Below, piece by piece: positions 5,490 to 14,625 of a stretch of 64,000 bases of DNA. The notes beneath the pieces are model-generated. The model saw only the letters and a list, made by a program, of their open reading frames with translations. It did not search any database and was not told where the DNA came from. Source of the DNA: an uncultured Bdellovibrio sp. (GTDB taxonomy: Bacteria; Bdellovibrionota; Bdellovibrionia; Bdellovibrionales; Bdellovibrionaceae). The position numbers and the translations under genes are program-made. The DNA is taken from assembly GCA_963932905.1 (NCBI GenBank), contig CAWVRN010000011.1, forward strand, positions 1 to 64,000, in the 5' to 3' direction. Every line of letters starts with the position of its first letter. The stretch's first letter is position 1.

Positions 5490-7064
5490 CTAAGAAGAAA
5501 TCGTCAAACTTCCGGAACGAAAATTGACTCGAATGATCTCTCTAAATGCTATTTTTAGATTTACATTGGCATCAATAGAGTTAGTTTTTTTTATCTGATA
5601 TCCAATTTCAAATAAAAGACTCCATTGCTTAAACAGAACCTTATAGGCGTCTAAAAGTTTAGTGTTAGAATCCCAAATATGAGTTGCTTCAGATCCGGCT
5701 CCGTTGATTTCAACAATTTCAAATTTTCCATTTTTCAGGGCGACGGAATTTTCGTAACGGACATCGAAGCGTCCGAAATAGAAATGGGGGATGCTTTGGG
5801 AAATAACCTCTACCGCGTCCAAAAGTTTTTCGGTCATTAAATGATTTCCATTTTTAAAAATAGCACCTTGGCAATGATTTCCGCATTCGGACAAAAATAC
5901 GACAGAGTTTTCTTTTGGAACTTCATCCAATCGGTTTCGCCAGCGACTGAAGTAAGTCGAAGCGATGATTCGTGCGCGTGGGTCTTTTAAAATAAGCTCA
6001 CCCAATGAATTTTTTCCGTTAGCCAAAACAAAGGGAAATTCTTTATCTGTAATTGAAAAAAGGAAACCTTTTTCTGCGGATGGATCACGGACATAAAAAA
6101 TTCCAGCCTCTTTTGGTAAACGACTTAGCTTTTGAGCGATCAGATCAAATTGGCTTTGTAGTAAATATTCCGCTAAGTCAAATTCATCTTTGATGATTCT
6201 GACCGCAAAGCCACGTTGCCCCACATCCGGCTTCAAAATAAATGGAAAACTGAAGTCATTGTTAGCAAGAAGTTGCATGAATTCGTTAAAATTAGTACCT
6301 GCTGAAACTTTGAACGCTCGTAACGTCGATAATTGGTTTGGATCTAAATATTTTAGAAAATCCCATTTGGATTCGCCGATCAGACCGGAATTTAATATTT
6401 TAGGATTGGTATAAAAAGGATTCAAAAAGCTCCGATAGCGGAAAGAAAAATAGACATAATAAAACACGACGGGAATATAGAAAAACCATGCGGGCCAAAA
6501 CTCAAAATGAAGCCATTTTCGCCAAGAGTGCATTAGAGCTTTGCGTTCCCATTTATCGGCTAATTTTGGAATCAAAATTTTTGCGCAGTAAAGTATTGTA
6601 GTCAGGACAAGCAAACTTAACCAAAAATAGTCCATCAGGAAATAATGAACTGTTTTACCGGCCGCCAAAGCGACGGCTACCCAAATGCCAACGCTGATAA
6701 AAGTTAAATAGGAAAACCGGAGTGCTGAATACTTTATAATTCCGGCCGCAACATAGGTAGGTAGTCGAGCTCCAGGAATTAATCTTGAAATGAATATCAA
6801 ATAGTTAAGCGCATTTGATGATTTGATTTTTAATAGGGCTGCTTGTATGTTCGGCGACGAATTGATTTTTTTACCTAAACCAATTTGTGAAGCGTGTCGT
6901 CCCAAAAAATAAAGTCCAATGTCACCGATTGAGATCCCTAAAAAACAGGCTAAAAATCCACTTGTCGTACTAATTTTTCCTTCGCTGATTAAAGCAATGC
7001 AACTAACCAGTGCGACGTCTTCTAAAATGAAAGTTCCTATAAATAGACTTAACAGATATTCCAT
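5490..7064 (-). CDS. DedA/VTT membrane domain fused to ATP-grasp (carboxylate-amine ligase-like) domain
   Basis: N-terminal TFILED...GDIGLY.LGR...SRLIPGARLPTY.AAG (DedA); C-terminal FPFILKPDVGQRG, FGRFDVRY, EINGAGSE (ATP-grasp). Start taken at ATG 7064. Confidence 0.85.
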   Translation of the reverse strand: MEYLLSLFIGTFILEDVALVSCIALISEGKISTTSGFLACFLGISIGDIGLYFLGRHASQIGLGKKINSSPNIQAALLKIKSSNALNYLIFISRLIPGARLPTYVAAGIIKYSALRFSYLTFISVGIWVAVALAAGKTVHYFLMDYFWLSLLVLTTILYCAKILIPKLADKWERKALMHSWRKWLHFEFWPAWFFYIPVVFYYVYFSFRYRSFLNPFYTNPKILNSGLIGESKWDFLKYLDPNQLSTLRAFKVSAGTNFNEFMQLLANNDFSFPFILKPDVGQRGFAVRIIKDEFDLAEYLLQSQFDLIAQKLSRLPKEAGIFYVRDPSAEKGFLFSITDKEFPFVLANGKNSLGELILKDPRARIIASTYFSRWRNRLDEVPKENSVVFLSECGNHCQGAIFKNGNHLMTEKLLDAVEVISQSIPHFYFGRFDVRYENSVALKNGKFEIVEINGAGSEATHIWDSNTKLLDAYKVLFKQWSLLFEIGYQIKKTNSIDANVNLKIAFREIIRVNFRSGSLTISS

Positions 7065-7074
7065 ACTTCCTATG

Positions 7075-7101
7075 AGTGTTGCAGAGGTTACTTTCGTTAC
7101 A
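7075..7101 (-). promoter_or_regulatory. Putative ECF-sigma promoter for the DedA-ATP-grasp gene
   Basis: TGTAA-N17-ACACT on the minus strand; identical boxes and spacing to the motif at 7162-7188. Confidence 0.6.
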
Positions 7102-7161
7102 AAAACAACCAAATTTAAAAAAAGTGAGCTATATTAGGCTGTTAGGATCACAAAATATCTT

Positions 7162-7220: not shown

Positions 7221-7685
7221 TTGAGACAACTTTTGGTGGTATTTGCGTTTTTTTTATCACTATGTGCTTATTCGAAATCAGTCGCGAACCTCAACAAAGA
7301 GGGCGTGATTCTAAATGGATATGATGTGGTATCTTACTTTCAAGGTGATCAACCTAAATTAGGGGTACCTCAATATCAAACGACCCATGACGAAGCGATC
7401 TATTGGTTTGAGAGTCATGAAAACAAATCTCGGTTTTTAAAAGACCCCAATAAATATACCCCCCAATTTGGAGGATGGTGTGCCTATGCTGTTGCGGATT
7501 CAAAATCTAAAGTCGAGGTCGATCCAAAGAGCTTTTTAATTCAAGACGGTAGATTGCTAGTTTTTTATAATGGCTTTTTGGCCGATACTCGAAAAAAATG
7601 GCAAAACACCAAAAATAAAGATCCAAAAACATTTCTGAGAGAAGCTGATGCCAATTGGCCGTCTGTAAAATCAAAGGAGCCATAA
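7221..7685 (+). CDS. Periplasmic YHS-domain protein (YHS selenoprotein-like family, Cys form)
   Basis: Signal peptide; GYDVVSYF, F..DP.KY.PQFGGWCAYAV, IQDGRL..F, ADANWP motifs; GGAGG RBS with TTG start. Confidence 0.88.
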   Translation: MRQLLVVFAFFLSLCAYSKSVANLNKEGVILNGYDVVSYFQGDQPKLGVPQYQTTHDEAIYWFESHENKSRFLKDPNKYTPQFGGWCAYAVADSKSKVEVDPKSFLIQDGRLLVFYNGFLADTRKKWQNTKNKDPKTFLREADANWPSVKSKEP

Positions 7686-7687
7686 AT

Positions 7688-8101
7688 ATGAAAGCGAAAG
7701 TCTTACTTGTGTTACGAGTTGTGGCCGCGATTATTTTGCTTCAAACTCTGTATTTTAAATTTACGGGAGCTCCCGAATCTATCTTTATATTTACAAAAAT
7801 GGGTATTGAGCCTTGGGGCCGCTGGTTTTCAGGAATTATCGAGTTGGTAGCCGCGGCATTGCTGGTCCTGCCGGGAACTCAAATGCTTGGGGCACTGATA
7901 TCTTTAGGTGTAATGTCCGGTGCGATTATGAGCCATCTCCTTGTTTTAGGTTTAGTGATTGAAGATGATGGTGGATTGTTGTTTGGTTTGGCGTGCACGG
8001 TGTTTATTTTTAGCCTATTGGTCCTTGTTGTCAAAAGAGACCAATTGAAAATTTTGGTTAATCGATTGGCTAAATTAATTCTTAAAAAGAAAACAGAATA
8101 A
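7688..8101 (+). CDS. DoxX-family membrane protein
   Basis: ILLQTLYFKFTGAPES..IF..MG.EPWGR...G.IEL, GAI.SHL..LG; four hydrophobic segments; AAGGAG RBS before ATG 7688. Confidence 0.88.
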   Translation: MKAKVLLVLRVVAAIILLQTLYFKFTGAPESIFIFTKMGIEPWGRWFSGIIELVAAALLVLPGTQMLGALISLGVMSGAIMSHLLVLGLVIEDDGGLLFGLACTVFIFSLLVLVVKRDQLKILVNRLAKLILKKKTE

Positions 8102-8109
8102 GAGGATTT

Positions 8110-9741
8110 ATGGCAGAACATAGTTATGACAATAGTTATAAACGGACTGTGCTATTTGAATCAGATGCTTTTGAAGTCGTTTCGATTGAATGGTTCAAGG
8201 ACAGTTTTTCGCCAGAACATAATCATGGTTGGAGTCAGTGTTCCGTTCTGGTTCAAGACGGTTTGTTTGAAAATACTTTGGACATGGGTGGGAAAATTGA
8301 AATTCAATTGGCTGAGGTTGGTCAAGTGATTACAACCCCTATCGGCGCTAAACATGGGCTACGCTGTCTTTCTAATGGTGGAAAAACTTTGCATGTGTAC
8401 ACACCAAAAATCGAGTCACGTAAAATCGAAGGTCGATTTCACGCGCCTATTCAGAATTTGAATGCCAGTGAACTAAAACTATCGGAACCCATGCGAATCA
8501 ATGAATTGAAATCCCTTCTAAATCGGATTCAAAGTCTTTCCATTTCAACACATTCGCCTTACTTTATGAATCAGCTTTTTTCTGGGATTATGCCTCAGAT
8601 GTTGATGGCCGAGTCTTTAATCGCTCAAACACGAACGACGTTGGCGACTCAAGAAGCCAGTCCGGTATTTTCAAAAATTGAAGAAGAAGTGATTGATGAG
8701 CTTGGCAATTTAATTGGGTGGCCAAAAACAAAACGCGACGGTGTCAACGTGCCCGGAGGTAGTGCCGCTAATTTTATGGCGATTCACTGCGCGCGCCAAA
8801 AAAAGTTTCCAGAATACAAAAAAACGGGAACCACCAGCGGCGGGCTACGAATATATGTCTCTGATCAGGCCCATTACTCGTTTAAAAAAGCTGCTGTGAC
8901 TTTGGGTATAGGCTCTGACAACGTCATTTCAATTGGCTCTGATGAGAGAGGTCGATTGCGGGTTGAGCTTTTAGCCAAACAAATCAAAGCCGACATAGAA
9001 GCTGGAAAAACTCCGTTGATTGTCGTCGCAACGGCAGGTACAACAGTTTTAGGGGCGTTCGATCCTATCGAGGAAATAGAAAAAATTTGTCGTGCTCATT
9101 CTATCTGGTTACATGTTGATGGAGCCTGGGGTGGTCCCGCGTTATTTTCTGACAATACTAAACAGTTGTTAAGTGGAATTAGTTTAGCGGATTCCGTTAC
9201 CTTTGATGCTCACAAATTGTTTGGGGCGAGTTTAACATGTAGTTTTATACTTACTAAGCACGTCGGTCTTTTGCGGGAGTCCAATGATGTTTCCGGTGGC
9301 GATTATCTGTTTCATCCAACCGACACTTCTGTTGATCGAGGAAAATTGTCTTGGCAATGTGGTCGCGGTGCCGACGCTATGAGTTTTTGGACCATTTGGA
9401 AAAGTTACGGAACTCAAGGTTTAGGTAACTTGGTCGATAGTCTAATTCAAATCAGACAAGAAACTGAAAGCTGGGTTAAGGAACAGCCGAGGTTAGAACT
9501 CGTCGCAGAGGCATCATTTCTAAATTTATGCGTGCGAATTAGACCGCCCATTGATCAAGCTGTATTAGATGCAAAGCAGTGGTCTAAAACCGTTCGGGAA
9601 AAGCTAATAAAAGATGATTTAGCCATGGTGAATTACTCTGAAAATGAAAATGGCACATTTCTGAGATTGATTTATGCTCACCCTGAATTAGAATTTGAGC
9701 ATGTGAAGCAAATATTAAAATGGTCGTTAGAGGTGAAATGA
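8110..9741 (+). CDS. Cysteine dioxygenase-like cupin fused to group II PLP-dependent decarboxylase (CSAD/GAD-like)
   Basis: First ~100 aa: YKR, HNHGWSQC, H, LHVYTP (CDO-type motifs). Remainder: NQLFSG, PGGSAAN, HYS, TAGTT..GAFDP, HVDGAWGG, DAHK (PLP lysine). Confidence 0.85.
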   Translation: MAEHSYDNSYKRTVLFESDAFEVVSIEWFKDSFSPEHNHGWSQCSVLVQDGLFENTLDMGGKIEIQLAEVGQVITTPIGAKHGLRCLSNGGKTLHVYTPKIESRKIEGRFHAPIQNLNASELKLSEPMRINELKSLLNRIQSLSISTHSPYFMNQLFSGIMPQMLMAESLIAQTRTTLATQEASPVFSKIEEEVIDELGNLIGWPKTKRDGVNVPGGSAANFMAIHCARQKKFPEYKKTGTTSGGLRIYVSDQAHYSFKKAAVTLGIGSDNVISIGSDERGRLRVELLAKQIKADIEAGKTPLIVVATAGTTVLGAFDPIEEIEKICRAHSIWLHVDGAWGGPALFSDNTKQLLSGISLADSVTFDAHKLFGASLTCSFILTKHVGLLRESNDVSGGDYLFHPTDTSVDRGKLSWQCGRGADAMSFWTIWKSYGTQGLGNLVDSLIQIRQETESWVKEQPRLELVAEASFLNLCVRIRPPIDQAVLDAKQWSKTVREKLIKDDLAMVNYSENENGTFLRLIYAHPELEFEHVKQILKWSLEVK

Positions 9742-10349
9742 ACCACAAAAACAGAAGCACGATTGAGTACATTACTGAGGATGTCAGGGAACGATTGAAA
9801 AATAGGGACCCCGTATTGTTATCGCAGTTGTTCACTGAAGTGAATCCCTATCTGATTCGTGTCTGTGGAGCCAGTGGCGTTTATAAAGAACATGCCGATG
9901 AAGTCGTTCATGAAACGTGGCTGGTTTTTTTCGGTGGTTTAGATAAATATGAGGAGCGTTCAAAAATTAGAACCTATATTTGTGGAATTCTTTTCAACAA
10001 AATAAAAGAATTTCGACGAGCGCAAAATAGATTAGTTTTTGAAGAAGATTCCGCCGGCAGTATAGAAAAATCTTTTTCTCAGGACGGGTGGTGGAAGCGA
10101 GAGCCAACTGATCCACACAAAATATCGGAATTGAATCAGGCTTCGAAATTCATATCTGATTGTATGGATGGATTGAGTGAACAACAGAAAACCGCATTTA
10201 TCTTGCGCGAAGTTGACGATGAAAGTTCGGAAGATATTTGCAACACATTAGGAGTCAGTTTAGCCAATCTACGTGTACTTATTTTCAGAGCAAAGGATAA
10301 ACTAAAGCAGTGCCTAGAGGGAAAAATGGCAACGAAAGGAGTTCCATAG
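9738..10349 (+). CDS. ECF RNA polymerase sigma factor
   Basis: Region 2 (ADEVVHETW...RSKIRTYICGILFNK) and region 4 (AFILREVD...EDICNTLG.S..N.RVLIFRAK.KL); ATGA overlap with upstream stop. Confidence 0.92.
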   Translation: MNHKNRSTIEYITEDVRERLKNRDPVLLSQLFTEVNPYLIRVCGASGVYKEHADEVVHETWLVFFGGLDKYEERSKIRTYICGILFNKIKEFRRAQNRLVFEEDSAGSIEKSFSQDGWWKREPTDPHKISELNQASKFISDCMDGLSEQQKTAFILREVDDESSEDICNTLGVSLANLRVLIFRAKDKLKQCLEGKMATKGVP

Positions 10350-10678
10350 TGAGAGACTTTTTTACAAACTGTATTCGGTTGGTATGGCATGCCCTCTACT
10401 ATGGTTTAACATTCAAACCAGGCGTTGAGTTTGCCTTAAGATGTAAAGAGGCCACTGAGAAGATAGATTTGCCGGATCAGGTGCGCACTCCCCGCGAGGA
10501 ATTCCGATTGAAATTACATTTAAGTCTATGTCAAGCCTGTCATGGCTATTACAAGACGACTGTCATTTTAAGAGCCGCCGTCAGACAGCGTTGGAACAAA
10601 TACACCCGTTCTGAAACAGAGATGGAAAATTTAAATCAGAAACTGTTAAGTAGCTTCAGCAAGCCAATAGTTAAATGA
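10349..10678 (+). CDS. Zinc-binding anti-sigma factor (ZAS)
   Basis: C...(CKEAT)...HLSLCQAC matches the HxxxCxxC ZAS motif; GTG start overlaps the sigma stop codon. Confidence 0.8.
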   Translation: MRDFFTNCIRLVWHALYYGLTFKPGVEFALRCKEATEKIDLPDQVRTPREEFRLKLHLSLCQACHGYYKTTVILRAAVRQRWNKYTRSETEMENLNQKLLSSFSKPIVK

Positions 10679-10712: not shown

Positions 10713-11960
10713 TCAGAACACCTTTGGCGTCAATCGATGCGTCAGTAGAAAGCCGCCGTCGTAAATAATGTATCCGTCTTTATCGCGGTTAGGTGATTCC
10801 ATAAGTTTGTTAAACAAATTGTCATCGACAATTTTTCCAGTAGGTACCTTGCCACCCCAGCTGGCGATAATCGAGACTTTTTGTTCTGTTGTATACGTTG
10901 AGGGGTATGGTTTTCCAGCTAAGTCGGGCGAAAAGGGCAGATTATAGAAGTTGTTAAAATTATTTCCGCCGAGGTAAATGGCATTGGACCCCTCATCGCC
11001 GCGGTTTCTTGAGCTGGCCAAATGTGTATTTTTAAAATAAACCCAATCACCGGGAACAAAATTAAATTTAGATACTTCGATAGTGGCGTCTAGGAATTTA
11101 CCTTCCATTCTGGATAGTTCGGCTTGTGTGGTGTCTCTGAAATCTTTCCAAATATAACCCGGTTCTGGATCTTGCAATGGTTCGCCGTAAGCGAACAACG
11201 ATTCGATTGCTTTCTTCAGTTTGATTTCATCAGGGCGAATGCGTGTGTAGTAATCTGTAATTCCATGAAGCATGGAAATTTTAGCAGCAGTTAAGCAGCC
11301 CATTCGATATCCACGGCTTGTGAAAATATCGTGGATAGCTTGAACAGCGATGGGTCCATATTTACTAGGATCTGTTTTCCATTTCGAATAGTCTTTCCAA
11401 TAAACTGGATTAAATGCCGCTGGATTTTTACCAGGAAAAATGAATTGTTTTTTCTCGATCCACGCCACGATATTTTGTCTGATTCCAATGTGGTCTTTGA
11501 AATTTTGAATATCACAGCCTTCATTTTTAAATTCTGTCAGACGGCCATGTTGCAAGAGCGATAAAACGATTTCTTTTTTTGAAACGACGGGTTTGTCTTT
11601 TGAATTAATGGGTAAGCGAATCCAATCGGGCTTGATGTTATATTCGGGTCTTTGACTTAATTTCAAAGTGTTGTGATCATCGGCCGGAGTCGATAGTACG
11701 AATCCCAATTGATCACCTGAACCTGAAAAATAGAGAGAGTAATGTTGTCGACTGATTTGCAGTTCGTCGAAATATTCAATTATTTGTTTGAACAATATCT
11801 GGTTTGTGGATCTGCCGCAGGTGAATAATACTCCATCTTTAAAAGACCTAGGGGCAGCGCCAGCAGTATGGAACTGAAATAGGATAAATACGGCAGCAAG
11901 GGCTTTGGCAAATATTAGGGGACGACTCATGGATAGACCAATGTCCAAGTTCTGGGCCAA
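10713..11960 (-). CDS. Secreted Tgl-like protein-glutamine gamma-glutamyltransferase (transglutaminase)
   Basis: Y.MGCLTA, PGDWVYFKN and EGSNAIYLG resemble Bacillus Tgl motifs; signal peptide from Met at 11930. Confidence 0.7.
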   Translation of the reverse strand: MAQNLDIGLSMSRPLIFAKALAAVFILFQFHTAGAAPRSFKDGVLFTCGRSTNQILFKQIIEYFDELQISRQHYSLYFSGSGDQLGFVLSTPADDHNTLKLSQRPEYNIKPDWIRLPINSKDKPVVSKKEIVLSLLQHGRLTEFKNEGCDIQNFKDHIGIRQNIVAWIEKKQFIFPGKNPAAFNPVYWKDYSKWKTDPSKYGPIAVQAIHDIFTSRGYRMGCLTAAKISMLHGITDYYTRIRPDEIKLKKAIESLFAYGEPLQDPEPGYIWKDFRDTTQAELSRMEGKFLDATIEVSKFNFVPGDWVYFKNTHLASSRNRGDEGSNAIYLGGNNFNNFYNLPFSPDLAGKPYPSTYTTEQKVSIIASWGGKVPTGKIVDDNLFNKLMESPNRDKDGYIIYDGGFLLTHRLTPKVF

Positions 11961-12168: not shown

Positions 12169-14625
12169 ATGAGCTATCACTCGAAAGCTACGATTGCTAT
12201 TTTGGTTTTTTCTTTGTCATTTAATGCTGCCTACGCAGGACCATTATGTATAGAGGTGTATTCCCAAAACATTAGAGACGCCAAGCCAATCGAAGTTCCT
12301 GGATTGGGTGGAGCGATCTTTAAAGGTGGTTGGAAAGGTTATGAAAAAAGAAAGCAAATTATTCGTAGCAATCAAGCTTTAGAAACAGCTAAGGCAAATT
12401 TGCAGAAACGAAGTACTTTACAAGCTAGTGAGCTGACGATTTTAATTGCTGATAGTGTGGCAAAGGTATCTCCCCAGTTTCAAACTAAACTAAATTCAGA
12501 AGTCGAGCCATTCACGAAAATGATTGAAAAAGCAACTTCAGAGGCCGCAGTGACCGTGTTGGTTAATAAAGCAAGACAAAAACACGACGGTATAGTTTCA
12601 GAAAACAAATCTGTTGGTGAAGTCGCCAAACAGGCTCGAATCGATTTTGTTGCCAAATTAGAAAGTGTACCACGTTATAAACATAAAGACACCGTGGAGC
12701 CCATCAATCAATTACTTGCTAAAATTGCAGGAGCTGGCTCTGGCGAAATAGCAAAAAAAATGGCTACTGATGGTATGTCCGAACTTAGCCGAAAAATGGT
12801 GGAATTTTCTGAAAAAGAATCTGTTCGTAAAGTGGCCGAAAAACGGTTGGGTGAACAGGATTTGCAAAACGCTGAATTGGTTATGAATGGCTATGTGGAG
12901 TCGATTAGAAGAATCGATCCTGCCTTTGAAAACTTGTCCCAGCAAGCTTTGGGGTCTTTAAACATTCTAAAGGTGAGCCCAGAATTTAGAAAATTCATTT
13001 ACAACGAAATGCAATTTTTGCGTCGTGCACAGCGTTTTGGAATTCAAAATCGTACTGCAAGTCTTGAGCTAAGAATCAGGAACAATTTAGAAATTCAAAG
13101 ACAGTATGAGGTTAGTTACTCGTCAAATCCGGCCGCTGCAGAATCGGCATTGAAAATGAAATTGGCGCTTCGATCGAAAATTAAGGAACTTTTTTCACCG
13201 GCTAAGATCAGTGTTATCAATGAAGATTTTCGTCATTTAAAATTAAATCACGATGTTCGCGAGAATATTTTGAAAGATTCGATCCGCCAACCCGAGTTGT
13301 TAGCGACGTTGCTGACATTAACGATGAAATACCCCGAACTACCTGCCGAACCAGTGAAGCCTTCGGCACCAGTGAAGCCCAATCTCTACACTAAAAGGGA
13401 TTTTAGAGGTAAATCTCCCTCTACAATTAAGACAATGGTTGCGTCTATGAAGCGCGATATAGCGAAGTTTTCAGAACAAGCCAAAGCCTATCCAGGAAAA
13501 ATTTCGGCTTATTCTGAAGCTAAAGCTGCTCACAAAATCAAAGTAAAAGAAGTGATGCAGCTTCAACATCGAATCAAAACTGCCCGCGCCAGTTTTGCAT
13601 CTTATTTGTCATTAACGGCTCCGCAAATTTTCAATGGTAAAGCGGCAATGGTGCAACAGGCTCAGGCGAAAAATAAAATTGGTCGTCAAGTTCAACATAA
13701 CATCAAATCGCTTTCGAAAGCTAACTACCAGCGTTTAGTTGATAGATACCCACAATATTCAAATCGTTTTTCGCGTTATAGAAATGAATCTAGTTCCGTA
13801 TTTCAAGGGGACAATATGTCCTTCTTTGATATTTGGTTGATGGCATCCATTACTAACAATCCTATGTGGTTTATTTCACCGACGTTCGCAAGAGTTCAAC
13901 TATTTATAGATTTGATGTCCAACGGCACCATAGATCACAACCATCCTGAACGTGATCCTGTTGTCAGCGGTTATATTGCCGATGTGAATCTGCAGCACCC
14001 TAACGATCAAATTCAAATAGATACGAGTCCAAATGGAATCAAAGAACGCTATGAAGAAATTCGTCAAGCTCATGCAGAAGAAGTGAATTCAGCCACAAGG
14101 GCCGAGGCTCAGCTACTTACATTCGACACAGCAATCATCGACAATCAATCAAAACATCCTGTTGTTGAGCAAATTGATCCTTTGTTGCGTGAGGAAACCA
14201 TCAATGAATTGGATAGTGCCGATGCGCTTTTAAAAGATGTTCGCAGCCAGGAAGAAATTGAAGCCAATTTGCGTGCGGCTGATCAAGATGCTATAGAGGC
14301 TCAACGCATTCAAGAGGAAGCCGACTTAGCGGCCCGTGAAGCGGAACAAGCACAACGAGAAGCTGAACAGGCCGAACGTGAAGCACAGCAAGCCCAACAA
14401 GAAGCCGAGCAAGCGCAACGGGAAGCAGAACAAGCAGCTCGAGAAGCCGAGCAAGCCCAACAAGAAGCAGAACAAGCACAACGAGAAGCCGAACAGGCAC
14501 AACGCGAAGCGGAGCAAGCAGCTCGAGATGCCCAGGAAGCTGCCGACCAAGCAGCTAGGGATGCACAAGCCGCAGCCGATTCAGCTGCCTCAGAATCCTA
14601 TTCATCCTCAAACAATGATTACTAG
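12169..14625 (+). CDS. Secreted helical protein with C-terminal heptad-repeat tail
   Basis: 818-aa ORF, AGGAG RBS, signal peptide, EAEQAQR repeats and Ser-rich end; no recognisable family. Confidence 0.8.
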   Translation: MSYHSKATIAILVFSLSFNAAYAGPLCIEVYSQNIRDAKPIEVPGLGGAIFKGGWKGYEKRKQIIRSNQALETAKANLQKRSTLQASELTILIADSVAKVSPQFQTKLNSEVEPFTKMIEKATSEAAVTVLVNKARQKHDGIVSENKSVGEVAKQARIDFVAKLESVPRYKHKDTVEPINQLLAKIAGAGSGEIAKKMATDGMSELSRKMVEFSEKESVRKVAEKRLGEQDLQNAELVMNGYVESIRRIDPAFENLSQQALGSLNILKVSPEFRKFIYNEMQFLRRAQRFGIQNRTASLELRIRNNLEIQRQYEVSYSSNPAAAESALKMKLALRSKIKELFSPAKISVINEDFRHLKLNHDVRENILKDSIRQPELLATLLTLTMKYPELPAEPVKPSAPVKPNLYTKRDFRGKSPSTIKTMVASMKRDIAKFSEQAKAYPGKISAYSEAKAAHKIKVKEVMQLQHRIKTARASFASYLSLTAPQIFNGKAAMVQQAQAKNKIGRQVQHNIKSLSKANYQRLVDRYPQYSNRFSRYRNESSSVFQGDNMSFFDIWLMASITNNPMWFISPTFARVQLFIDLMSNGTIDHNHPERDPVVSGYIADVNLQHPNDQIQIDTSPNGIKERYEEIRQAHAEEVNSATRAEAQLLTFDTAIIDNQSKHPVVEQIDPLLREETINELDSADALLKDVRSQEEIEANLRAADQDAIEAQRIQEEADLAAREAEQAQREAEQAEREAQQAQQEAEQAQREAEQAAREAEQAQQEAEQAQREAEQAQREAEQAARDAQEAADQAARDAQAAADSAASESYSSSNNDY
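14317..14526 (+). repeat. Intragenic 21-bp tandem repeat, ~10 degenerate units encoding EAEQA(Q/A/E)(R/Q)
   Basis: Directly visible units such as gaagcggaacaagcacaacga and gaagcagaacaagcacaacga with synonymous variation. Confidence 0.9.

Follow-up and report, generated by a model that had tools for sequence, protein, structure and literature searches.

A two-gene route to taurine that combines cysteine dioxygenase (CDO) with cysteine sulfinate decarboxylase (CSAD) was reportedly described by Agnello et al. in 2013 for Synechococcus sp. and a few marine bacteria. In the accessible portion of a preprint (bioRxiv 10.1101/2024.03.02.583032), the bacterial CDO and CSAD pathway is encoded by two genes in an operon of a few marine bacteria, and the accessible portion of a review (Chem Rev, PMC13474568) also describes the pair in a few marine bacteria. 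As far as these texts go, cysteine-based synthesis of taurine and hypotaurine is seen as mainly animal or algal, with only a few marine bacteria credited and two genes involved. Here we analysed a stretch of 64,000 nucleotides (the window) from an uncultured Bdellovibrio sp. (contig CAWVRN010000011.1, positions 1 to 64,000), in which one gene (8110..9741, + strand) starts with ATG and encodes a 543-residue protein made of a minimal CDO-type cupin followed by a pyridoxal phosphate (PLP)-dependent decarboxylase of the CSAD/glutamate decarboxylase (GAD) clade. An original prediction, drawn from the letters of the window, had described a single-polypeptide fusion, and one open reading frame (ORF) indeed carries both halves, an arrangement that recurs in 34 of 49 related loci. 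Sequence comparison shows a minimal Arg-type CDO homologue naturally fused to a CSAD-clade decarboxylase, a fusion that is conserved and probably converts cysteine to hypotaurine within one protein.

Compared with the two-gene pathway, the window gene brings together the same enzyme families in the same order, and the two are genetically linked in both cases. It differs in that a single polypeptide carries both families, with a dioxygenase of only ~105 residues; in that the decarboxylase departs from CSAD at two of the three positions of the reported selectivity motif (Thr/Ala for Ser/Tyr); and in that the host belongs to Bdellovibrionota, not to cyanobacteria or other marine bacteria, and surrounds the gene with a DoxX/YHS/DedA-ATP-grasp cluster. 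That known bacterial examples consist of two separate genes, as the prediction had it, agrees with the operon described in the accessible text of bioRxiv 10.1101/2024.03.02.583032 and with seven two-gene relatives found here. Among listings and abstracts of open-access and bioRxiv papers, none described a CDO-CSAD that is fused or bifunctional, and none described Bdellovibrionota making hypotaurine. What is new here is probably the one-protein form, whereas the cysteine-to-hypotaurine pathway itself is already known.

Domain layout of the fused protein

Residues 1-105 (8110..8424, + strand) form the cupin domain, nine β-strands with a predicted metal site of His37, His39 and His82, accompanied by Arg12, Cys44, Cys86 and Thr93-His95-Tyr97. 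A linker and the start of the decarboxylase N-terminal segment follow (residues ~106-145; 8425..8544, + strand), weakly conserved to about residue 117 and helical beyond, with helices at 119-122 and 130-143 in the full-length model; alignments to GAD65/67 begin at query residue ~109-110. The PLP decarboxylase core spans residues 146-543 (8545..9738, + strand) and contains the predicted pocket residues Phe157, Thr177 and Ala179, the stacking His255, the PLP lysine Lys369, Tyr399 of the catalytic loop, and the carboxylate Arg519. Every motif named for either half in the original prediction is present in the translation.

The AlphaFold2 model of the full-length protein reached a mean predicted local distance difference test (pLDDT) score of 89.1 and a predicted template modelling (pTM) score of 0.88, with pLDDT falling to 71 in the block 101-110. 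The pTM value hints at a fixed arrangement of cupin and decarboxylase in the model. When the two halves were modelled as a complex, the score was 0.28 against a mark of 0.32, a result with no bearing either way on an interface or on channelling.

Recurrence, split relatives and distribution

A homologue search of a 5.8-billion-protein collection, with 8000 candidates scored, returned 824 proteins at E ≤ 1e-5. The count of fused homologues called for by the prediction came to at least 120: the listed full-length proteins have 494-560 residues, align with 91-100% of the query and are 53-74% identical to it (the window protein excepted), the few named ones being from Bdellovibrio or Pseudobdellovibrionaceae. 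Their source labels read "glutamate decarboxylase", "pyridoxal-dependent decarboxylase" or, from JGI, "decarboxylase/quercetin dioxygenase-like cupin", so that annotation at present conceals what they are likely to do. Neither the fused protein nor the split decarboxylases or split CDOs described below reached any NCBIfam model.

We then compared loci from one genome per species, 49 related loci in all, the named ones mostly metagenome-assembled genomes (MAGs) of Bdellovibrionota, calling fused and split forms with hidden Markov models (HMMs) of the two halves. One of the homologues, L005, is carried by Bdellovibrio sp. qaytius, which is culturable. In 34 loci a single ORF encodes both cupin and decarboxylase, in 7 an unfused decarboxylase has a cupin ORF of its own upstream, and no cupin was found nearby in the other 8. 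The split cupin abuts or overlaps the decarboxylase in L038, L040, L042, L043, L046 and L049 and lies ~1 kb away in L041, and all seven split cupins pass the Pfam CDO_I model (49-80 bits, cut-off 23). At L033:720-1712 and L035:441-1391, an HTTM-domain membrane protein precedes a cupin-less decarboxylase with the Thr/Ala pocket described below, and in L035 a phosphatidylserine decarboxylase gene is also nearby.

In an unrooted maximum-likelihood tree of 44 complete decarboxylase domains (partial rows L014, L024, L029, L036, L044 and L047 dropped), a branch with 100/100 support separates 30 fused and 5 cupin-less Thr/Ala sequences from the rest, namely the 7 split decarboxylases (96/92) and 2 sequences with canonical Ser/Tyr. 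This topology fits one fusion event with later losses of the cupin, the base of the fused clade being unresolved in the unrooted tree, which does not give the order of events. Across the phylum, 401 genomes were sampled, and 25 of them contain a match to the cupin profile at E ≤ 1e-8 (19 of the 337 high-quality ones); 12 of the 27 listed profile matches are open frames of 540-563 residues. Matches occur in none of the 3 other genomes of the window genus, in 5 of 53 in the family and in 0 of 26 in genus g4; on these profile counts, the distribution of the fused gene is patchy.

Relationship of the cupin half to cysteine dioxygenases

Taken alone, the window cupin matches only Cupin_2 in Pfam (E = 0.097). 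The CDO_I model (PF05995; gathering score 23 bits) gave no match to it at E ≤ 10 and no match anywhere in the genome at E ≤ 1, and a single-sequence search of the PDB placed generic cupins (0.015-0.09) ahead of Bacillus subtilis CDO (0.27). The HMM search proposed in the original prediction was thus borne out for one half, with Pyridoxal_deC at 262 bits, and not for the window cupin. Among 61 family members, CDO_I matches at E ≤ 1 were obtained for 19 (best 1.1e-5) and Cupin_2 matches for 32. Because such single-sequence matches are too weak, we built two profiles, A3 from the 34 fused cupins only and A2 from the A3 set plus the 7 separate cupins.

Searched against solved structures, A3 reached B. 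subtilis CDO (4qm8, 3eqe) at 8e-10, with all other matches at 4e-4 or weaker and mammalian CDO1 and generic cupins intermixed among them. With A2, B. subtilis CDO rose to 3e-16 and mammalian CDO1 to 4e-15 to 4e-12, followed by ergothioneine dioxygenase (2e-7), 3-mercaptopropionate dioxygenase (7e-4) and generic cupins at 3e-3 or weaker. An exhaustive A3 search over 1.84 billion representatives returned 1205 proteins at E ≤ 1e-3; 21 of them were scanned with Pfam, and all 15 that lie outside the fused family and its fragments are CDO_I proteins (26.9-369 bits). By these profile comparisons, the window cupin is homologous to cysteine dioxygenases, a relationship visible at the profile level only, and the expectation that it would match thiol dioxygenases was correct at that level. 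The cupin model is well defined (pLDDT 95-98 across residues 11-100), and its top Foldseek match is 4qm9, again B. subtilis CDO, with generic cupins nearly level; fold comparison cannot tell CDOs from generic small cupins and was not used to decide CDO membership.

The best solved relative, B. subtilis CDO YubC (3eqe, 4qm8, 4qm9; Arg-type), shares the three-His site, the Arg and the Ser/Thr-His-Tyr triad, yet it has ~50 more N-terminal residues, the alignment starting at its chain residue ~51-55, and it lacks both a Cys at the crosslink position, where the window cupin has Cys44, and the fused decarboxylase. The N-terminal segment of about 50 residues is missing relative to CDOs in general: alignments to solved CDOs start at chain residue ~51-59, and the window ORF starts 9 residues ahead of the first barrel strand. 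Mammalian CDO1 (2b5h, 4yyo) has the same Y-x-R, H-x-H, Cys five residues after the second His, third His and H-x-Y-[ST]-P, including the Cys/Tyr pair of the C93-Y157 crosslink; it is, however, ~200 residues long against ~105, has longer loops between the metal ligands, and is reached by the fused-only profile at just 4e-4.

CDO_I domains occur in other multidomain proteins as well. Five A3-profile matches (P0134, P0136, P0140, P0143, P0148; 672-924 residues) contain 3-4 tandem CDO_I domains at 318-362 bits, and P0157, P0227 and P0162 are other natural CDO_I fusions. One fusion type joins an N-terminal CDO_I to an FAD/NAD(P)-binding domain (NAD_binding_9) in ~640 residues, and another joins CDO_I to a class I methyltransferase in 636 residues.

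Active-site residues of the cupin

The translation contains Y10-K11-R12, W28, H37-N-H39-G-W-S-Q-C44, H82 and L94-H95-V-Y97-T-P99. In the profile alignment to rat CDO, whose residue numbers we take to be as follows, Y10/R12 correspond to Y58/R60, H37/H39 to H86/H88, C44 to C93 and H95/Y97 to H155/Y157, and the three-His site aligns with H86/H88/H140. The motifs named in the original prediction have the spacing given there, the Cys standing at second His +5 in both proteins. The stretch from the second to the third His is shorter in the window cupin, at 43 residues, than in rat CDO, at 52.

Among the 120 listed homologues, H37 and H39 are each kept in 117, H82, H95 and Y97 in all 120, T93 (Thr for the Ser of the Ser-His-Tyr triad) in 119, C44 in 115 and R12 in 114, the remainder at R12 being 5 gaps and 1 Lys. 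Chance would not account for such retention. Of the residues listed in the original prediction, Y10, the Tyr58 equivalent, is the variable one, occurring in only 61 of the 120. The full thiol-dioxygenase site (three His, Arg, Cys and Thr-His-Tyr) is found in 33 of the 34 fused genome copies, and the alignments indicate that it is under strong purifying selection. In the fused homologue L032 (6962-8638), the cupin is degenerate, with R12, H37, H39, H82 and Y97 all replaced, and the catalytic residues of the decarboxylase are intact.

Most bacterial CDOs are reported to carry Gly at the C93 position. Cys occupies the crosslink position in 6 of the 7 split CDOs, and among the 75 nearest standalone CDO-like representatives (136-260 residues) the column holds Cys in 35 and Gly in 35; one Cys-bearing standalone cluster contains a cyanobacterial MAG protein. 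As far as these alignments reach, Cys at this position is not exclusive to the fused form, and the notion of a special, "eukaryote-like" Cys has to be given up. Because Cys44 and Tyr97 are both present, a Cys44-Tyr97 crosslink may form. The accessible text of PMC8050391 sets out the roles of Arg60 (which binds the cysteine carboxylate), Tyr157 and the C93-Y157 pair in CDO, and states that bacterial CDO forms work with an unmodified Tyr. If the cupin is active, ~105 residues may suffice for a cysteine-type thiol dioxygenase with a Cys/Tyr pair, which bears on the crosslink mechanism.

A second Cys marks the fused cupins. Cys86 (codon 8365-8367), four residues past the third His, is present in all 34 fused genome copies and in all 120 listed homologues, and in none of the 7 split cupins.

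The decarboxylase half and its substrate pocket

The C-terminal half matches Pfam Pyridoxal_deC (PF00282) over residues 146-477 at 7e-78 and 262.4 bits (cut-off 27). Among proteins of solved structure, the closest in sequence are human CSAD (2jis; 5e-80, 273 bits) and mouse CSAD (6zek; 268 bits), followed at a small margin by GAD67 (256), GADL1 (253) and GAD65 (246), with decarboxylases of the diaminobutyrate and aromatic types far behind this group. A fold search with the full-length model gave the same order, with 2jis first (1.6e-43, TM 0.83). On sequence, the decarboxylase half is of the CSAD/GAD/GADL1 type, with 33-34% identity to mammalian CSAD (2jis, 6zek) over ~450 columns, while the variable N-terminal extension of CSAD is replaced by the cupin in the window protein.

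At residues 154-159 the window protein reads NQLFSG, as does human CSAD, where GAD67 has NQLSTG, so the CSAD-like assignment of this motif was correct; NQLFSG or NQLFAG is found in all 49 locus proteins and the window protein. Downstream, RTTLATQE (175-182) aligns with NTSQYTYE of human CSAD, which replaces CSAD Ser114 and Tyr116 by Thr177 and Ala179. Ser114 and Tyr116 reportedly belong to the CSAD selectivity motif published by Agnello et al. in 2013. All 34 fused and all 7 split proteins have Ala179, as do 5 cupin-less relatives; at position 177, 33 of the fused copies have Thr and one, L017, has Ser; and the Tyr118 equivalent varies across relatives. Canonical Ser/Tyr is confined to the outgroup decarboxylases L044, L045 and L048 (NTS[LM]YTYE), and the flanking ORFs scanned around these three included no CDO. 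The MAGs that encode these outgroup proteins bear the labels Dichelobacter nodosus, Nitrospinae and Sphingobacteriia. The pocket divergence noted in the original prediction is thus real, but as the Thr/Ala pocket is common to the fused and split clade, including unfused decarboxylases next to a CDO, it does not stem from the fusion. The three-residue CSAD motif may accordingly not cover all CDO-linked decarboxylases, and surveys based on it would miss this clade.

The residues described as central in mouse CSAD in the accessible text of bioRxiv 10.1101/2020.09.25.308866, Phe94, His191, Lys305, Tyr335 and Arg466, align with F157, H255, K369, Y399 and R519, which are invariant in 61 sequences. 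The same text makes the case that glutamate and other larger substrates are kept out by Phe94, so that a small acidic side chain is to be expected (sulfinate, sulfonate or the carboxylate of Asp), and reports that CSAD and GADL1 also accept Asp.

Proposed reaction and its alternatives

Fusion of the two halves in one lineage, together with collinear CDO-then-decarboxylase genes in a sister lineage, points to consecutive steps, and since the chemistry of both families fits the sequence cysteine, cysteine sulfinate, hypotaurine, the halves probably act one after the other. In the bifunctional reading that we favour, the N-terminal minimal cupin would be an iron-dependent, Arg-type thiol dioxygenase that converts L-cysteine and O2 to cysteine sulfinate, and the C-terminal PLP decarboxylase would remove the α-carboxyl group to give hypotaurine, which can oxidise on to taurine. 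The substrates and the product are those expected from the two families, and fusion might offer an advantage through fixed stoichiometry or channelling. A single-chain version would extend the pathway to a lineage of Bdellovibrionota, and the fused enzyme could serve as a compact part for engineered production of taurine or hypotaurine.

The Thr/Ala pocket raises the question of substrate. Since it replaces Ser114/Tyr116 across the fused and split clade, with three outgroups canonical, and since Tyr to Ala should enlarge the pocket, the enzyme might act on a different thiol or sulfinic amino acid (homocysteine, a cysteine derivative or peptide-bound cysteine), or its second half might be a cysteate or small-acid decarboxylase, the product being a relative of hypotaurine. 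The variable Tyr58 equivalent, the divergent and truncated cupin, and the presence of ergothioneine dioxygenase and ADO among its profile and fold matches agree with such a shift. We nevertheless regard it as unlikely: the carboxylate-binding Arg12 is kept in 114 of 120 listed homologues, true CDOs score far above 3-mercaptopropionate and ergothioneine dioxygenases in the family profile, Phe157 is invariant as in CSAD, and Thr retains the hydroxyl of Ser114.

It is more doubtful still that the decarboxylase alone is catalytic, on Asp, Glu or another non-sulfur acid, beside a regulatory, metal- or O2-sensing or structural cupin. CSAD, GADL1 and GAD do score within ~30 bits of one another, Asp is also taken by CSAD and GADL1 (accessible text of bioRxiv 10.1101/2020.09.25.308866), the cupin fold resembles non-enzymatic and generic cupins equally well, and both the cupin-less relatives and L032, with its degenerate cupin, retain a decarboxylase, intact in L032. 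Against this stand the complete thiol-dioxygenase site, kept by strong purifying selection in 33/34 fused copies, and the Pfam-valid CDO_I upstream in the split relatives, and Phe157 speaks against glutamate. The fused gene is the only Pyridoxal_deC member of the genome (98.6% complete), and a pyruvoyl-type PanD (156 bits) is encoded near PanC on contig C37 of the same genome; as PanD and PanC are present to supply β-alanine, aspartate decarboxylation to β-alanine for coenzyme A is not needed from the fused gene and was set aside as its role.

We know of no PLP-dependent cysteine decarboxylase of the CSAD/GAD clade, which counts against a reversed order, in which the decarboxylase would form cysteamine from cysteine and an ADO-like cysteamine dioxygenase in the cupin would yield hypotaurine. 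That order is highly improbable, given that the conserved Arg12 suits a carboxylate-bearing substrate (accessible text of PMC8050391), that the sequence profile favours CDO, and that the decarboxylase lies in an acidic-amino-acid clade with the pocket Phe.

A search for taurine catabolism found a sole TauD-family gene in the genome (L053, G000:C15:19709-20422; PF02668, 170 bits), which resembles γ-butyrobetaine/TmpA-type dioxygenases in NCBIfam, all below cut-off, and is not evidence for taurine use.

Gene neighbourhood

The fused gene belongs to a gene cluster that is conserved among the relatives; neighbours were counted in 40 loci with at least 1.5 kb of upstream sequence. The fused gene starts 8 bases past the stop of a gene for a DoxX-family membrane protein (7655..8101, + strand; Pfam DoxX_2, 27.3 bits), with a GAGGA Shine-Dalgarno-like site just 5' of its start, downstream of the DoxX stop. 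A DoxX gene lies within 5 kb in 30 of the 40 loci; in 22 it is the immediately preceding gene, on the same strand and at most 150 bp away. Ahead of DoxX is a YHS-domain (seleno)protein gene (7221..7685, + strand; NCBIfam NF041384, 111 bits, cut-off 70), which encodes a signal-peptide-like N-terminus and has homologues within 5 kb in 30/40 loci; its protein has a GGWCAY motif, with Cys here. The fused gene appears to be co-transcribed with the DoxX and YHS protein genes. Promoter-like sites were not enriched relative to shuffled sequence (9 against 10.3), and Rfam gave no match to an RNA family (E ≤ 0.1) between 4500 and 12500.

The most consistent neighbour, with a homologue within 5 kb in 33 of the 40 loci, is a divergently transcribed partner gene (5490..7112, - strand) for a 540-residue protein with an N-terminal DedA/VTT membrane domain (VTT_dom, 41.5 bits) and a C-terminal ATP-grasp-like ligase. 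The ATP-grasp half of the window protein had no significant Pfam or PDB sequence match, and it is called ATP-grasp-like on account of weak NCBIfam matches, an L037 homologue that matches RimK at 25 bits (cut-off 21), and its neighbours in the ESM Atlas, where the nearest clusters are RimK-type ATP-grasp proteins. The structural neighbours in the Atlas include VTT plus ATP-grasp proteins, some with an α/β-hydrolase, of ~860 residues in Acidobacteriota, Planctomycetota and Balneolota. The DedA-ATP-grasp gene and the fused gene stand side by side in G000, G007 and G295, and neither occurs in 9 genomes sampled in both searches.

Downstream, the TGA stop of the fused gene overlaps (ATGA) the probable ATG, at 9738, of a gene for an extracytoplasmic function (ECF) sigma factor (9738..10349, + strand; Sigma70_r2/r4_2), homologues of which lie within 5 kb in 19 of the 40 loci. 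It is followed by a putative anti-sigma factor gene (10310..10678, + strand; NCBIfam NF052368 at 27 bits, below the cut-off of 50), with homologues in 21 of the 49 loci, whose product carries HLSLCQAC, an HxxxCxxC motif of the zinc anti-sigma type. In some systems this motif senses thiol oxidation. In split loci, for example L040, the genes run ATP-grasp, CDO, decarboxylase, DoxX, YHS and VTT, all on one strand; the cluster is absent around L032 and 4 of the 5 cupin-less relatives, and is retained in L037.

These neighbours suggest a function of the product in the envelope or in redox stress. Under the favoured cysteine-to-hypotaurine reading, the enzyme may dispose of cysteine, provide hypotaurine as an antioxidant or osmolyte, or supply a precursor for ATP-grasp ligation. 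The last of these can be extended into a more specific proposal, which we hold to be possible though hardly likely, that the fused enzyme supplies the precursor for a stress-regulated envelope module, previously undescribed, consisting of the ECF sigma/zinc-type anti-sigma pair, YHS, DoxX and DedA-ATP-grasp proteins. Hypotaurine, or a related sulfinate amine from the altered Thr/Ala pocket, would then be ligated and exported instead of being the end product: the ATP-grasp ligase would couple the amine to a carboxylate acceptor, and transfer of the conjugate through the membrane by the DedA domain would yield a lipid, peptide or envelope modification of a new kind that bears a sulfinate or sulfonate. 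On this proposal the fusion would also represent the smallest thiol dioxygenase in nature that has a Cys-Tyr cofactor, and it might pass its product straight on to the PLP site. The linkage also offers a handle on the DoxX, YHS and DedA-ATP-grasp proteins, three poorly understood families.

Two further genes of the window lie beside the fused gene in none of the 49 other loci. The one at 10713-11960 (- strand) encodes a 415-residue protein with a weak match to protein-glutamine γ-glutamyltransferase (TGL, PF20085, 40 bits), and the one at 12169-14625 (+ strand) encodes an 818-residue protein with a long C-terminal Gln/Ala/Glu-rich repeat of the QAEREAEQA type.

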